Shown one piece after another: positions 14,395-24,897 of a stretch of DNA of 24,897 bases. A program made the position numbers and the translations under genes. Under the pieces are notes generated by a model. That model was given only the letters and a program-made list of their open reading frames with translations, was not told where the DNA came from and did no database searches. Origin of the DNA: a virus; the UHGV virus genome UHGV-0147584; one strand, given 5' to 3'. The first letter of the stretch is position 1, and the number at the start of each line of letters is the position of its first letter.

Positions 14395-14796
14395 TTAAAA
14401 ACGCGCTAGATAAGAAAATTTAAGGCTAAGTGTCCCAACGATACCCCCATCACTAGAATCATCGTCATAATCGGTATTAGAAGCGACTGGAGTTATATCT
14501 GAAATGGAGAAGCCCAAATCTTTAAAACGTGGGTTATCTGGCTGAATCTGGATTATCTGGCAAATACCCTCATGAATTTTGGTTTCATGAATCTGAGAAT
14601 ATAATTGCATTTCGATAACGCATTCAGCTTGCATTGCATTACCACCACGGACCCTAGTGTAAGTCTCATTCATTCCGGTAATCCAACACACCACGTCATC
14701 GCTAAAACCAGTTTGAGTTTGTTCTACGTTTAAAGCCAGACCTAGATCTTGTTCGATAATATCCTGTAAAGCACGTTTAATCTTAAGACGTGGCAT
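14395..14796 (-). CDS. neck / tail-completion protein (hypothetical)
   Basis: ORF frame extends to 14823, but the ATG at 14794-14796 lies 4 nt after the upstream stop (coupled start). Position corresponds to lambda Z/U. Confidence 0.45.
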   Translation of the reverse strand: MPRLKIKRALQDIIEQDLGLALNVEQTQTGFSDDVVCWITGMNETYTRVRGGNAMQAECVIEMQLYSQIHETKIHEGICQIIQIQPDNPRFKDLGFSISDITPVASNTDYDDDSSDGGIVGTLSLKFSYLARF

Positions 14797-19379: not shown

Positions 19380-21284
19380 TTAGAACGATGTTACCCAGCT
19401 ACGGCCTCTATTTGGGCGTCTGGCGATGTTTTTACGTTGTGGTCGTGTGATTGGCTTATTTTCTTCGATTTGCTCGTCAGATTGCGATTTAGGAGCTTTT
19501 ACGGGTTCTTCGACAACACGGTTTAAGCTGTCTTTCATTGCGATGAGTTTATCCCATGACATTTTTGAAAGGACGTAGCGAGAAGCCGCTGTAGCATACA
19601 CGGCGCAGTCGAGCGCCTCGTTCCTAACGCCTGGGTTCTTTACCCATCTCACGCCAGTAGTAGTACGCTTGACAGATTCACTTAAAAGCTGATCGAGATA
19701 ATCATCAGGAACGGTGTCTGATATTTCTAAGCCAATATGAGGATTATCTTTCAGGTTCCTAGCCAACATTTCACGAAATGCAGTTTTACCCACATTAACA
19801 CCCAACATAAGCAATTCATGACCACCTGTGCGGGTAGGTTTAACCGGAATGATCGGAGCGTTACCAGCAGAACTACCTTTGATAGCGTGTAAGTTCTTCC
19901 ACTTGCCGCAAATACGGTATCCAGCTTGAGTGAATCGACCGTTCGATGTATCAAGGAAGCTGGCGAGCATAGGAACACGATCACCCGATACAGTAGTAAA
20001 TCTGGTTTTATGGAAGTTGATTAATCTATCCCATACAGGGGATTCATATCGTTCACAGTTATGATCGTAAAAGCTGCGGTGATCCAGAATATAAATCTTA
20101 TCCTTTGCCACGCCCATGATTGTAGTTTCTGCGCGATCTAATTGCTGGTCAGTACCCGCACACAAGAAAATCACGTCATCAGGGATATTCTCGATAGAAA
20201 CATCTGTTTTGAGTTGTTCCAGTTCATTTGCTTCTACTGCCGTGTCCTGATCGTCGTATACCTTGCCTAACACGGTGTTATAAAATGATTGTAAATCAAA
20301 GGATTGCCACGCATGACTAAAATCAACCACACAAGCGCGGATCGTGCTGAAAGGTGAATACAGACGGCTGATCCAGAATCCTGCTACTTCACTTTCACGG
20401 GTTGCTCTCCACTCGCCTTGTGCTACTGCCCTGATTCGTTCCCCTTCGGTCCATGCGTTCTTACAGTGGGGGCAAATATAACGAGCGGTATCAGGATCGG
20501 GTAAGTTCTTACCATCGATGTTACGCCATTCAAACTGTACGTTTTCCCACTCGATCACCTGGTGTCTACCGCAATGAGGACACGGAACAAAAAACATACG
20601 CATATCACTTGATAACCATTGCTGGTTAATGCTTCCGAGCTTACTGGTCGGGGTACTGGATACGACTAATCGGCCTTCATCGCCAAAGGTAGTTAAACGG
20701 TTAGCAGCCAGTGCCACCGGATCACCTTCTTCTGAGGCTGTAGCAGCATCGATTTCGTCAAGCAATCCAACCTTTGCGGTCTTACCGCGTAGGGTTGATG
20801 GACTAGTAAGCGATACCATATAAAGGAAGTGGTTTGATTTGAGCTGGAGCTGATTGTTGTTATTAACAGAATTGCGATCATTCTTGTCTGTAACCACGTC
20901 TTTTAATGCATCACATGCTTCGATAGACGGTCGGATCTTACCCGCGAGATATTGAGACATTTCTTTAGCGGTTGATTGTCCGATAATCATATTGCATGGA
21001 TCGTTAGCCATCTGGTTAAACAGGATGCCGTTCAAGATGGTAGTCTTTCCGATCTGCGCACTGGTCATCAGAACATACTTTTTCTTGTTCTCAAGGAAAG
21101 GAGCATCAATCATACCTTTCTGGAATGACAGCAATTTAACTTTATCCCCAGCTTGAGGACCATCTACCAGCACCATATTCGCTTCGCACCATTCAGAAGG
21201 AAGGAGCTTAGGCGGTGGCGTAATATATTTGGCTGCATTTTTGAGAATCTTTTTTAATTTGGCCTTATTTGAAATCAGTTTCAT
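19380..21284 (-). CDS. terminase large subunit, lambda gpA family
   Basis: 634-aa ORF. Walker A-like TSAQIGKTT, paired CPHCG...CPHC motifs, [11 protein letters not shown] and [11 protein letters not shown] segments closely resembling lambda gpA as recalled. SD GAGGGT. Stop TAA. Confidence 0.9.
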
Positions 21285-21369: not shown

Positions 21370-21972
21370 ATGCTAATTAATCAACAACAAAGAGATGAAT
21401 TAGAATTAGCCTTGTCTTGTACCGATCATGAATATCGTTTGCCAGTTAAGCATAAGCATTTAAAAACCGACTACACTACATCTGGCTTTAGTCGTGAGGA
21501 AGCGAAAGAGATTTTAATAGAGTTTTACCGCGATAATGGTTATACAGACGTTCACAACTTCTTTAAGAAGCATAGAACATCACATACAGAGTTTCGGAGA
21601 GTCCGAGATTGGTTTGATTTTGATATCAAGCGTTATTATCGAGTGGATGACGGTCCTATCTATCGGTTGCAGTGGACACCGATCAGGGAAGTGTTGAAAC
21701 AGAAGAGATTGAATCACGCCATTACACGCTATCGTAACGAGGCTTTCAAGAAAGGCTATGGTGATACAAGGGAACTATTCGTTGAACTCGCTAACGTGAA
21801 ATATAGCCACTATTACAACGATCCTACAGGGTTCTTCGAAGTGCTTCGCAAGGTTGATATTAGTCGGGGTACATATTATTCACGGCTGAGGAAGTACGGG
21901 ATTAAGGTAGAGTTCTTTATGTCGGTTGACGACTCACCCATGTTCAAGATAAAATCTAAGTCCTCTAAATAA
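21370..21972 (+). CDS. hypothetical DNA-binding protein with C-terminal HTH-like motif
   Basis: 200-aa ORF with SD AAAGGGGG. C-terminal [20 protein letters not shown] looks like a helix-turn-helix; paralogous to the following small gene. Stop TAA. Confidence 0.5.
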
Positions 21973-22007
21973 TATTGAGAAATCACTATTGTTTGGAGGA
22001 AACTACT

Positions 22008-22235
22008 ATGACTACTAAAGCTACTCGCGGTCGCCCTGCCCGTTTTAACGCTGAACAGATGGCTGATATTGCCTACGCTTACTATACAGCGGATCGTGGT
22101 AAGGAAGCGAAAGAACAGATTCTTAGTGAACATGGGATCTCAATCGCCCAATTCTATAAGAATATGAAGAAGTTAGACATTAAATTCTATGTTCAGATCG
22201 GTGATGGTCAGATCGTAGAAGCAACAGGTTTTTGA
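22008..22235 (+). CDS. small DNA-binding protein (RGRP motif plus HTH-like C-terminus)
   Basis: ATG 22008 is preceded by GGAGGA at 7 nt (the ORF track begins at an upstream TTG). Sequence MTTKATRGRPARF...HGISIAQFYKNMKKLDIKF. Stop TGA. Confidence 0.5.
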   Translation: MTTKATRGRPARFNAEQMADIAYAYYTADRGKEAKEQILSEHGISIAQFYKNMKKLDIKFYVQIGDGQIVEATGF

Positions 22236-22280: not shown

Positions 22281-22395
22281 AAAACAATCGGCGCAAAACT
22301 GCGCTCATTTCTAAGTTGAGTCCAAATCTGGACTGATCTATAGATGCATCCAAATCTGGAGGGATGCGCTTAAAGTTCAGCGCATCTACAGATAC

Positions 22396-22420
22396 AAAAA
22401 AGCCCCTGAAATTCAGGGGC
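22396..22420 (-). terminator. intrinsic terminator (minus strand) after the Rha-like gene
   Basis: Minus-strand RNA GCCCCUGAA-u-UUCAGGGGC followed by UUUUUUGUAUCU. Confidence 0.7.
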
Positions 22421-22428
22421 AAAAATTA

Positions 22429-24251: not shown

Positions 24252-24502
24252 AGTGGAAATCCTCTAAAAAAGTGAATCAAAGTAAGTTCACTATTATTTA
24301 TAACGAGAAATTTTTGTCTAATTTGAAAGGAATTGGTATTCAGTCGGCTTCGCCTCCTTCATAGATTTTGATTAAATCATCATCAAAACGAAGAAGTATC
24401 TTTAGAATATAAGAATCTTTCTTTTGGAGAAATAATAATCAGGAAGCAATTTAGCAACCGAAGGTTGCAATCCCGAAGGGATACCAATACCTTTCATGAT
24501 CA

Positions 24503-24750
24503 TTAAAGTGATCTAGAATCATCTAGTAACCAGTTAACTACTATTATCTTCAAAGTGATTATTACTATCTTTCTAGAATCAGTTAGTAACTAATTTAAAA
24601 TCCCTTTCAAGAAAATCCTTTCAGAAGTGATTCTCGATGCCACGCAGTGGCGTCGCAGACGTTTGAGAGTGAGCGAAGCGAGCGAGCAAACTAGTTAATT
24701 CCTTCTAAGACCATCTAGTATCATCTAGTTTAAATTAGTGTTACTAGAAG
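24503..24750. repeat. iteron-like direct and inverted repeats built on CTAG cores in noncoding DNA
   Basis: aaagtgatctagaatcatctagtaac (24505-24530), aaagtgatt...tctagaatcagttagtaac (24552-24590), atctagtatcatctagtt..gttactag (24713-24746), plus palindromes GTTAAC and AACTAGTT. No ORF in the track covers this region. Confidence 0.6.
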
Positions 24751-24897
24751 TAATTGGTTAGCGCTTCGCGCAGTCGGGCTACGCCCTCCTAATATCTTTT
24801 TGGTTATTTGTTGTTTTTGGTTTTACACATGAGCGTAGCGAATGTGTTATATAATATCTATGCACGCCCGATCCCCCGTTTTTGCCCCTCACTAAGT

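Follow-up and report, generated by a model that had tools for sequence, protein, structure and literature searches.

What is the function of a cluster of CTAG-rich repeats lying between two divergent operons of an E. coli prophage? The cluster occupies positions 24503-24750 of the window, by which we mean the whole 24,897-nt stretch of virus genome UHGV-0147584 that was analysed, and the original prediction took it for an iteron-like array bound by an initiator, a small terminase subunit or a partition protein. The window derives from a temperate E. coli siphophage of ~38 kb, whose genes include a large serine integrase and a terminase of the lambda GpA type. No close relatives of this prophage family were found among deposited phage genomes, and the prophage has no annotated replication or immunity genes. 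Members of the family are frequent in E. coli and Shigella; among 5426 complete genomes, 57 carry the region, in E. coli at 60 matching places that are all chromosomal, with none on plasmids.

These CTAG-rich repeats proved to be genuine non-coding DNA elements of an E. coli prophage that is itself uncharacterised. Seven CTAG cores were indeed found within 248 bp (at 24513, 24523, 24573, 24691, 24715, 24725 and 24744), and the repeat copies include the predicted inverted one (GTTACTAGA at 24740-24748), alongside TCTAGAATCA at 24512 and 24572, TCTAGTAAC at 24522 and GTTAGTAAC at 24582. The whole 24.9-kb window contains 45 CTAG sites, or 1.8 per kb, and if these were scattered randomly, seven or more would fall in a 248-bp window with P = 0.00025. 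Under a first-order Markov model of the local 648 bp, 2.5 sites are expected (P = 0.013). The local cluster stands out as claimed. CTAG is not strongly avoided in the phage itself (45 observed vs. 54 expected). The 10-mer WTCTAGWAWC has five matches in the window, all inside 24511-24749, against 0.44 expected, and none of 100 shuffles reached five; the motifs of the CTAG region are absent from the rest of the 38-kb prophage. Non-coding status held on fuller annotation, with no open reading frame of at least 30 aa overlapping 24504-24778 and no CDS in the RefSeq annotation of the CTAG region. The region described as 650 bp long is gene-free, but its true length is 1.39 kb in complete prophage copies, of which the window holds the first 650 bp. 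Lysogens include E. coli ETEC1703 (NZ_CP122923, where the gap spans 3174745-3176131) and 14EC007 (CP024131).

Across all relatives this gap between the divergent operons measures 1.2-1.6 kb. It contains three tandem modules, A, B and C, each an AT-rich core ending in a GC mini-hairpin pair with GNA or TNC triloops; in B and C the core is a CTAG cluster. The modules are followed by one inverted and at least ten direct iterons, two near-consensus sigma70 promoters, a gene for a 60-aa HTH protein and the gene for a 313-aa protein. Four iteron types occur among relatives (GGGGCAAAA, GTGTAGG, CGGGGA and TTGTACA arrays), and loci are named below by these types. From left to right, the features in the window are:

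24288-24302, minus strand: promoter-like box TATAAATAATAGTGA (15 nt), then a hairpin and a T-run, upstream of the leftward 150-aa operon; left border of the gene-free region.
24323-24496, no strand: module A, a 174-nt imperfect palindrome with its core at 24361-24442.
24454-24482, plus strand: hairpin pair A, GCAACC-GAA-GGTTGC and ATCCC-GAA-GGGAT, both with CCGAAGG; GNA loops on the plus strand.
24496-24633, plus strand: module B, the left CTAG cluster, GC 23-27%.
24500-24512, 24547-24559 and 24619-24631: direct repeats of module B, core TCWTYAAAGTGAT.
24511, 24521 and 24571: 10-mers of module B, ATCTAGAATC, ATCTAGTAAC and TTCTAGAATC.
Within module B: dyads TGAT-N5-ATCA and TTAGTAACTAA.
24639-24679, plus strand: hairpin group B, GCCAC-GCA-GTGGC, CGTC-GCA-GACG and the mini-hairpin GCGAAGC (24673-24679); GNA loops on the plus strand.
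24686-24757, no strand: module C, the right CTAG cluster, with four CTAG, AACTAGTT, the tandem 10-mers ATCTAGTATC and ATCTAGTTTA, and the inverted TTCTAGTAAC.
24761-24786, minus strand: hairpin pair C, GCGC-TTC-GCGC and GGGC-TAC-GCCC, which place GNA loops on the minus strand.
24788-24862, plus strand: T-rich tract, then the palindrome ACACAT-GAGCGTAGCGA-ATGTGT, then TATAAT; contains the DnaA-box-like TTTTACACA; type-1-specific.
24880-24890, minus strand: first iteron copy, inverted, GAGGGGCAAAA; ten direct copies lie past the window end (20687-20872 of locus L013).

The TATAAATAATAGTGA box is present in three perfect copies in the prophage, one before each of three operons, and is overlapped by a sigma70-like site, TAGACA-16-AATAAT. 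On the other side of the gap, the strong rightward promoters (L013 20912-20968) are directed away from the modules and are separated from the 313-aa gene by a 420-nt leader and the 60-aa gene. Small HTH-like paralogues (60, 86 and 200 aa) are encoded on both sides. None of the four flanking genes (150-aa, 110-aa, 60-aa and 313-aa) matched Pfam or PHROGs, and a scan of genome contigs returned no relatives of the 150-aa protein. Downstream, the minus strand carries a gene of the Rha/anti-repressor type. The prophage yielded neither a primase nor a helicase-loader gene, its sole helicase being UvsW-like, and no CI-like repressor could be recognised elsewhere in it. Two other possible markers were discarded: IMG/VR contig ends are not physical genome ends, as these contigs stop at prophage-prediction cuts or repeat-induced assembly breaks, and cumulative GC skew tracks gene orientation and is uninformative on the origin.

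The mini-hairpins are far from random. Six GC triloop hairpins form three pairs, with GNA or TNC loops in all six, compared with 0.22 hairpins in shuffled sequences and 0.03 with such loops. Their stems survive both sequence replacement and covariation among alleles. In type-2 loci, hairpin group B is replaced by CGCC-GTA-GGCG, a changed sequence with the structure kept, and the outer stem of hairpin pair C covaries, being GGGC/GCCC in type 1, CGGC/GCCG in type 2 and CCGC/GCGG in RB49. As DNA, hairpin pair A folds at -8.5 kcal/mol (z = -4.6). Module A folds equally on both strands (z = -5.4 on each) because it is a palindrome. The plus strand of 24496-24790 has a folding z of -3.4 and shows long-range complementarity of 24589-24599 with 24729-24739 and of 24522-24530 with 24740-24748. 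The CTAG cores have a GC content of 23-28% and a duplex stability of -41 to -43 kcal per 40 bp (mean -50.3, sd 4.1), which puts them among the weakest segments; the leader right of the rightward promoters is less stable still.

How much of this is kept among relatives? Of the 25 IMG/VR relatives that include the upstream region, 24 have CTAG ~250-500 nt away from the first leftward gene, even at 60-65% product identity; only L033 departs from this, with CTAG at about 150 and 306. The number of CTAG per allele ranges from 2 to 8 among related prophages and is not conserved, and the best-conserved repeat core is TATCTTCAAAGTGATY plus CTAGAATCAGTT rather than CTAG. The cores TATCTTCAAAGTGATY, CTAGAATCAGTT and AAATCCCTTTC are kept across alleles while the flanking protein genes fell to 60-65% identity. 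Module B has at least three alleles, with the AAAGTGAT unit in two to four copies, and module C is restricted to loci with type-1 iterons, types 2-4 having no module C CTAG cluster. With four iteron types and hybrid loci such as L011, mosaicism is strong, and its breakpoints lie at or near hairpin blocks.

Our next question was which of these arrays looks like the target of a cognate protein. The CTAG-repeat units are irregular. Direct repeats are spaced 47 and 72 nt apart at this locus and 24-36 nt apart in other alleles, spacing is out of helical phase, copy number varies between two and four, and one 10-mer is inverted, unlike the constant 17-22-bp tandem unit in a single orientation that characterises iterons. 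The GGGGCAAAA array has such a constant unit in one orientation. It comprises one inverted TTCAGGGGCAAAAAT copy at the last bases of the window and at least ten direct copies past its end, giving 11 copies within 250 bp, 130 bp from the CTAG repeats. At all 14 loci compared, the iteron type matches the N-terminal domain type of the downstream 313-371-aa orphan protein; the 60-aa protein does not co-vary with iteron type. Module B alleles co-vary with none of the three neighbours compared (the 150-aa, 60-aa and big proteins), and therefore no binder was identified for them. The main candidate protein-binding array, as read from sequence, is thus the TTCAGGGGCAAAAAT iterons, flanked by the CTAG repeats. 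The CTAG repeats, read as an accessory flank beside the TTCAGGGGCAAAAAT array, are therefore not themselves the initiator's iterons, and alone they are a modest cis element. What survives of the predicted initiator, terminase or partition target is a plausible location in an origin or control region; the signature of a cognate binder belongs to the TTCAGGGGCAAAAAT run.

The 313-aa protein has a beta-rich N-domain and a long coiled coil, although a single-sequence AlphaFold model was poor (pLDDT 46). Pfam, PHROGs, a PDB sequence search and tblastn against phages and plasmids gave no homologue of known function, and no relative was found in 72,556 plasmids. The protein had only 12 matches among 1.8 billion representatives, two large homology searches gave only near-identical E. 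coli copies, and it occurs on more than 1000 contigs. A terminator palindrome, GCCCCTGAAATTCAGGGGC (window 22398-22424), was considered as an extra type-1 site and rejected, since it is also found in type-2 and type-3 loci with no co-variation. Host-factor sites were also considered. TTTTACACA at 24822-24830 matches TTWTNCACA, but type-2 loci have a different palindrome around the same G-GTAG-G core at this position, and the pairing of TTTTACACA with the inverted TGTGTTATA as DnaA boxes was therefore rejected as type-1-specific. No DnaA box or other host-factor site is conserved across iteron types. AAAGTGATCTAGAATCA resembles an ideal CRP site by eye; its right half is off by 1 nt and the other units have no match, so it was also set aside.

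We tentatively read the CTAG modules as protein-binding DNA that melts easily and plays an accessory part in an origin or control region of the iteron type. The whole gap would then be the phage replication-origin and control region, in which the 313-aa protein would bind the iterons as initiator and the CTAG clusters, the cores of modules B and C, would form an accessory flank on the side opposite the initiator gene. In F, P1, pSC101 and R6K, an AT-rich unwinding and host-factor region lies on the side away from the initiator gene. A low-stability segment is similarly found here 130-380 bp left of the iterons, away from the 313-aa gene, though other unstable segments exist. The CTAG cores may serve as low-stability DNA in which short direct and dyad sites (TATCTTCAAAGTGATY, WTCTAGWAWC and TGAT-N5-ATCA) are bound by a conserved accessory protein of the phage or the host. 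After opening of the duplex, the mini-hairpins on either side could fold on one or the other strand, like the single-strand initiation signals of G4 and RSF1010. Mini-hairpins GCGNAGC and CCGAAGG have been reported at replication-initiation sites of G4, St-1, alpha3 and RSF1010 ssiA (PMC13037366). Against an origin stand the lack of a known-function homologue for the 313-aa protein, a DnaA-box-like site that is type-1-specific, the missing primase and helicase-loader genes, the even lower stability of the leader, the out-of-phase spacing and variable copy number of the repeats, the restriction of module C's CTAG cluster to type 1, and the lack of co-variation of module B with any of the proteins compared. 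The replication origin named in the original prediction is in this sense plausible for the region, with the CTAG repeats as its putative accessory flank and the iteron run lying beyond the window.

Compared with the iteron-type theta origins F oriS, P1 oriR, pSC101 and R6K gamma, the gap shares an AT-rich repeat-bearing flank, a direct iteron array (here ten direct and one inverted), a promoter, and the gene of a protein that co-varies with the iterons. In contrast to these origins, the putative initiator is an orphan with no homology to Rep_3, RepA or TrfA, DnaA boxes are not conserved, the promoter is set apart from the gene by a 420-nt leader and a 60-aa gene, and the AT-rich flank is split into hairpin-bounded modules. 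RSF1010 oriV and the G4-type complementary-strand origins likewise combine iterons with an adjacent AT-rich stretch and with short hairpins of high stability on both strands. As in RSF1010 ssiA, CCGAAGG occurs, in both module A hairpins, and GCGAAGC and GCGTAGC are also present (PMC13037366). However, no RepB'-type primase or RepA-type helicase is encoded here, and the hairpins are paired and 11-15 nt long, unlike the 40-nt ssi elements. A priming role for the mini-hairpins would be pure inference from this analogy.

The core of module A (24361-24442) is 75-82% identical to a four-copy intergenic element of Krischvirus (RB49/phi1, T4-type), which has the same layout of an AT-rich, dyad-rich core followed by two GC triloop hairpins. 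Exact-core matches in IMG/VR were limited to this prophage group and Krischvirus. Modules B and C were rejected as homologues of the RB49 element, as nhmmer detects module A only; they share with one RB49 copy only TTACTAGAAGT and the GCTACGC hairpin. We found no description of the four-copy element in the paper on PeSL, the cassettes of RB49-type phages that consist of a consensus sigma70 early promoter plus a GGGG...CCCC terminator stem-loop and for which shuffling of hairpin-bounded modules between phages was proposed (PMC2839356). The CTAG modules are similarly intergenic, hairpin-bearing and tied to mosaic exchange, but 24496-24790 has neither a sigma70 promoter nor a polyG/polyC stem, its hairpins being 4-6-bp stems with triloops, so identity with PeSL was rejected. 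One doubtful extension is that the module type, an AT-rich dyad core plus a GNA mini-hairpin pair, is a portable cis DNA element moving between unrelated coliphages (temperate siphophages and T4-like Krischviruses), of which the CTAG modules would be diverged members. It might act as a replication-initiation or recombination site, protein-independent or linked to the host or UvsW, or as a prophage decoy against superinfecting Krischviruses.

Two of the protein targets originally suggested fare poorly. The lambda GpA type of the large terminase could argue for a packaging site, cos or pac, recognised by the small terminase. The absence of a small terminase gene, true of the window, does not extend to the prophage, where a Nu1-like TerS gene (phrog_57, E = 1e-14, with a wHTH-like N-terminus) lies at L013 23290-23844 on the minus strand, about 2.6-3.2 kb right of the window end. 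Lambda-type cosB and cosN canonically lie upstream of the Nu1-type small terminase gene. Upstream of this TerS gene is a GC-rich stretch of 300 bp that contains GGGAAAG repeats and a GC-rich dyad. The CTAG region, which is AT-rich, is separated from terS by 3.3 kb and from terL by 3.2 kb, and so does not sit directly upstream of terS, where a lambda-type cos has its GC-rich cosN and repeated R sites. A packaging site at the CTAG repeats is very unlikely on these grounds, and cos is better placed beside the Nu1-like TerS gene. A partition centromere of the parS/parC kind, serving a plasmid-like prophage state, would suit short-repeat arrays in a gene-free region, but the prophage has no ParA-, ParM- or ParB-like gene, every one of the 60 matching places is chromosomal and the plasmids searched hold no relative of the 313-aa protein, which leaves this idea with next to no credit.

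Three further explanations compete for the CTAG modules. The CTAG dyads and AAAGTGAT repeats could be an operator or enhancer-like array for a small phage protein (the 60-aa, 86-aa or 200-aa HTH paralogues, Rha, or the 110-aa protein) that sets the divergent early operons in a lysis-lysogeny or anti-repressor switch, with the iterons and 313-aa protein as immunity operators and repressor. The site lies between divergent operons of a temperate phage, it combines several short dyads (TGAT-N5-ATCA, TTAGTAACTAA, AACTAGTT) with 10-bp tandem repeats, HTH-like paralogues are encoded on both sides, no CI-like repressor was recognised, and four specificity types are typical of immunity regions. An iteron array in front of strong promoters that drive its own binder's gene fits an immunity repressor with operators equally. 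Short CTAG-centred dyads such as AACTAGTTAA show a tentative resemblance to the trp operator and other CTAG-core operators, with different flanking bases and a different spacing (10 bp tandem). We nevertheless consider an operator array somewhat unlikely: the leftward promoter is 190-450 bp and the rightward ones are 400-650 bp away from the repeats, none of which overlaps a promoter, the repeat motifs are confined to this region of the prophage, module B alleles do not follow the proteins compared, and the GNA hairpin pairs are left unexplained. The mosaicism and its hairpin-associated breakpoints, the sharing of module A with unrelated T4-type phages and the PeSL precedent (PMC2839356) would suit a recombination hot spot that swaps hairpin-bounded modules, leaving CTAG repeats as duplicated filler with no sequence-specific function. 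This is unlikely given that the TATCTTCAAAGTGATY, CTAGAATCAGTT and AAATCCCTTTC cores persist beside such diverged genes, that the gap is held at 1.2-1.6 kb, and that the hairpins are not PeSL-type.

The low folding energies, the long-range complementarity, one A-U to G-U change between alleles that fits plus-strand pairing, and the Rha/anti-repressor-type gene could also be explained by a structured non-coding RNA. The hairpin pairs would then be 3' stabilisers or processing sites, for instance of an immunity or antisense RNA upstream of a Rha/Ant-like operon, or of an RNA decoy. P1 c4, P4 CI and N15 CA are examples of such immunity RNAs. The CTAG region is probably untranscribed, though, with no sigma70-like site predicted on either strand of the modules (L013 20100-20900) and no Rfam match at gathering score; relaxing the threshold to E <= 5 brought up eukaryotic snoRNA and unrelated models at chance level only. 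The module A palindrome folds as well on one strand as on the other, and the strand carrying the GNA loops switches from plus in A and B to minus in C, a pattern that suits DNA better than one RNA strand. Despite some motif resemblance, a ToxI-like antitoxin element was rejected since unit lengths are irregular, unlike type III antitoxin repeats, and neither a promoter nor a ToxN/AbiQ-type toxin was found (the four flanking genes having no Pfam or PHROGs match). We regard a non-coding RNA as improbable.

As a putative origin or control region, with iterons in four specificity types, a matching putative DNA-binding orphan, and CTAG and hairpin modules, the gap is an entry point to the replication of this prophage and to how its variants avoid interference. 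An 80-nt element shared with T4-like phages represents a rare exchange of non-coding DNA between temperate and virulent lineages, and the module A-like element may point to unmapped origins in Krischviruses. If true, the portable element together with the four-type pair of iterons and orphan protein would define a new kind of phage replicon.

The CTAG repeats at 24503-24750 agreed in sequence with their first description. CTAG starts at 24513, 24523, 24573, 24691, 24715, 24725 and 24744, seven occurrences in 248 bp vs. 45 across the 24,897-bp window. With 45 sites placed randomly, the probability of at least seven falling in some 248-bp window is 0.00025, and under a first-order Markov model fitted to the local 648 bp, 2.5 sites are expected and P = 0.013. 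Under-representation of CTAG in the phage is only mild (45 observed vs. 54 expected). A repeat finder returned a 24-nt unit in four copies (67–100% identity) and two pairs of exactly matching inverted sequences, TCTAGTAAC/GTTACTAGA and ACTAATTTAAA/TTTAAATTAGT. The 10-mer WTCTAGWAWC has five matches in the window, every one within 24511-24749, against 0.44 expected; shuffles never reached five. Motifs of the CTAG modules were not found elsewhere in the prophage.

That the repeats are non-coding was borne out: no ORF of at least 30 aa lies in 24504-24778. The surrounding region, put at 650 bp, is indeed gene-free but really spans 1.39 kb in complete copies (20002-21389 in L013, a related prophage locus extending past the window end); the window stops 650 bp into this gap. 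On the left the gap is bordered by a leftward operon of 150-aa, 110-aa and Rha genes. From left to right follow three tandem modules, A, B and C, each with an AT-rich core and ending in GC mini-hairpins, then a T-rich tract with a palindrome, then iterons. Right of the iterons lie three GTGTAGG sites and two rightward sigma70 promoters, leading through a conserved 420-nt leader to a 60-aa HTH-like gene and a 313-aa gene.

Modules, hairpins and promoters of the gene-free gap
24323-24496: module A
24454-24482: hairpin pair A, loops GAA and GAA on the + strand
24496-24665: module B
24639-24661: hairpin pair B, plus GCGAAGC at 24673-24679, loops GCA, GCA and GAA on the + strand
24686-24790: module C
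24761-24786: hairpin pair C, loops TTC and TAC on the + strand
TTGACA-17-TATACT, rightward: near-consensus sigma70 promoter with TG
TTGAAA-17-TATAAT, rightward: near-consensus sigma70 promoter with TG

The promoters and the untranslated leader occupy L013 20912-21353. Within the leader are a direct repeat of 26 nt (TGCTCaCCGCTTTAGCAA...), runs of TAACA and a hairpin that resembles a terminator; the leader could be a non-coding RNA. A 15-nt box, TATAAATAATAGTGA, which includes the T4 late-promoter consensus TATAAATA, occurs in three perfect copies, each preceding a hairpin and a T-run. They lie 55–85 nt upstream of start codons in three operons, those of the 150-aa, 60-aa and 94-aa genes.

Perfect copies of the 15-nt box
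window 24288-24302, minus strand
L013 21320-21334, + strand
L013 23268-23282, minus strand

Six GC-rich hairpins (stem of at least 4 bp, loop of 3 nt) occur in the first 650 bp of the gap, where shuffles give 0.22, or 0.03 with GNA/TNC loops. All six have GNA loops or the complement TNC; the TTC and TAC loops of pair C are therefore GNA on the minus strand. The stems outlast sequence change, both between iteron-array types of related prophages (the window is type 1) and in the T4-type phage RB49: GCCAC-GCA-GTGGC in type 1 becomes CGCC-GTA-GGCG in type 2, and for the outer stem type 1 has GGGC/GCCC, type 2 CGGC/GCCG and RB49 CCGC/GCGG. Because GNA loops occur on either strand, the hairpin structure probably matters as DNA, not in one RNA strand. 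The two CTAG clusters form the AT-rich cores of modules B and C (23–28% GC), with a duplex stability of -41 to -43 kcal per 40 bp (mean -50.3, sd 4.1).

The iteron array comprises ten direct copies and one inverted copy of TTCAGGGGCAAAAAT; the inverted copy is at 24880-24890, and the array continues past the window end (L013 20687-20872).

Iteron types among 10 chromosomal and 26 IMG/VR loci
Type 1: TTCAGGGGCAAAAAT
Type 2: TAGTGTAGGTTT
Type 3: ACGGGGA-type
Type 4: CCTTGTACATC

About 0.8 kb downstream of the array lies the gene for a 313-371-aa protein, and in 14 of 14 loci examined the iteron type equals the type of this protein's first ~170 residues. No such correspondence holds for the 60-aa protein. 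The larger protein has no match in Pfam, PHROGs or PDB, no relative in plasmids or phages, and just 12 hits among 1.8 billion representative proteins. In its single-sequence model, which is poor (pLDDT 46), a beta-rich N-domain seems to lead into a long coiled coil. This protein and the small proteins following it end in ...NYSAYAYAA, ...LLDFAA, ...TLRIVA and ...GLRLVA (loci L003, L024 and L039), tails that resemble ssrA-type (LAA/LVA) degradation tags and suggest that they may be unstable regulators.

Small HTH-like paralogues of 200, 86 and 60 aa (window 21370-21972 and 21975-22235; L013 21389-21571; all + strand) carry two, one and one repeats, share the motif G-I-x-x-S/A-x-F/Y-x-K/R-L/M-x-K-Y/L-x-I-K, and have no match in Pfam or PHROGs. 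Between the 86-aa gene and Rha, 22290-22424 holds an array of short hairpin units, GAGTCCAAATCTGGACT, GATGCATCCAAATCTGGAGGGATGC and GCGCTTAAAGTTCAGCGC, whose copy number depends on the locus. A terminator palindrome in this stretch, GCCCCTGAAATTCAGGGGC, agrees with the core of the type-1 iteron but does not co-vary with iteron type, and was rejected as an extra type-1 site.

Across related loci an allele carries 2 to 8 CTAG. At least three alleles of module B exist, with a direct-repeat consensus TATCTTCAAAGTGATY in 2–4 copies; CTAGAATCAGTT and AAATCCCTTTC blocks are likewise kept. No co-variation links these alleles to the 150-aa, 60-aa or 313-371-aa proteins. Four of the seven CTAG are in module C, which is confined to type-1 loci among those compared and is therefore part of the type-1 block.

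Iteron-type origins (F oriS, P1 oriR, pSC101, R6K) consist of an AT-rich repeat flank, iterons, a promoter and an initiator gene. The gap has the same order, from AT-rich repeat-bearing flank through iterons and promoter to the gene of the co-varying protein. GNA mini-hairpins of very high stability, CCGAAGG and GCGNAGC among them, are reported at replication-initiation sites of G4, St-1, alpha3 and RSF1010 ssiA (PMC13037366). Because of this layout and these hairpins, we tentatively favour reading the CTAG modules as an accessory flank that opens easily and binds protein, part of an iteron-type origin or control region, with the orphan protein as putative initiator. The interpretation first proposed, with a replication origin as one possibility, is partly supported, but the CTAG repeats would not be the initiator's own sites; the true iterons lie to their right. 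We hold this reading no more firmly because the orphan protein's role is only putative, because no binder was identified for the CTAG or AAAGTGAT motifs, and because an immunity repressor with its operators would yield the same iteron/protein co-variation. A transcriptional operator array is the first-ranked rival, somewhat less probable than an accessory flank. Recombination scars come second and are unlikely, and a non-coding RNA made from the modules is slightly less likely again. An A-U to G-U change between alleles is compatible with + strand pairing, albeit as weak evidence, and 24496-24790 folds with z = -3.4 (+ strand) and -2.4 (minus strand). Against an RNA, no sigma70-like site is predicted on either strand of L013 20100-20900, no Rfam family matches, and module A, being a palindrome, folds equally well on both strands.

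A packaging site at the repeats had also been proposed, but the small-terminase gene lies elsewhere with its own GC-rich upstream stretch. A 184-aa protein (L013 23290-23844, minus strand) matches small-terminase family phrog_57 (E = 1e-14), and we take its N-terminus to resemble the Nu1 winged helix. The 300 bp upstream of its gene are GC-rich and non-coding, with repeated GGGAAAG and a dyad that is also rich in GC. The cos site of lambda-type phages immediately precedes the Nu1 gene, so this stretch points away from the CTAG region, where a cos site is very improbable; a centromere is more improbable still. L013 23290-24140 covers the gene together with the 300-bp region, which also has a hairpin, GTCGC-GTA-GCGAC, and is a candidate cos site. 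The Nu1-like gene is ~6.7 kb from the large terminase gene, with opposing operons between.

Genes of the window include a lambda-family portal, a protease-capsid fusion, a Rha/Ant-type protein and the following terminase.

19380-21284, minus strand: lambda-type GpA large terminase

No close relative of the window was found among 50,697 deposited phages, the nearest large-terminase match having 44% identity. ARAGORN calls a 91-nt tRNA-Gln (anticodon TTG) at 14540-14630 (+ strand), within the structural gene block, where neighbouring ORFs are on the opposite strand. The element resides as a prophage in E. coli and Shigella: many chromosomal contigs carry the 150-aa protein adjoining the CTAG repeats, and of 5426 complete E. 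coli genomes 57 have the region, every time in the chromosome. In NZ_CP122923 the prophage is ~38 kb and inserted in ycdX; its far end carries a large serine recombinase, a UvsW-like helicase, GIY-YIG/CapR nucleases and a NUMOD3 protein. Further copies occupy codB or a site near yncJ, and such varied insertion genes (loci L003-L012 and L013/L014) fit a large serine integrase with variant specificities. Locus L014 shows T4-like cargo in a temperate siphophage (28973-32361 and 38643-39413): a UvsW-type helicase (UvsW_N, E = 2e-34), and two CapR/GIY-YIG-type nucleases and a NUMOD3 protein inserted among tail genes.

The core of module A (24361-24442, left of the CTAG repeats) has 75–82% identity to an intergenic element present 3–4 times in every genome of Krischvirus, the RB49-like T4-type phages.

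Copies in RB49
97689-97763
97540-97612
62809-62889
150000-150074

The genes that follow these copies are ORF164c, a neighbour of gene 24; gene 3; and a tail fibre gene, RB49p250, which is downstream of gene 34 and which we take to be gene 36. Each copy has the orientation of its downstream gene and is closed by a pair of GC triloop hairpins. Exact-core matches in IMG/VR were only to this prophage family and Krischvirus-sized contigs, and a profile of the Krischvirus copies did not detect modules B and C. The element was rejected as one of the promoter-stem-loop (PeSL) cassettes of RB49-type phages, and we found no mention of a four-copy Krischvirus element in the paper on these cassettes (PMC2839356). 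In T4, oriE, oriF and oriG are situated in late-gene regions, close to where transcription diverges (PMC3016281). Comparable regions hold the RB49 copies, and we infer that these may be origins.

The CTAG repeats belong to a known kind of cis-acting region. More notable than the repeats are the neighbouring pair of four-type iterons and orphan protein, and a non-coding module common to the prophage and T4-like phages.
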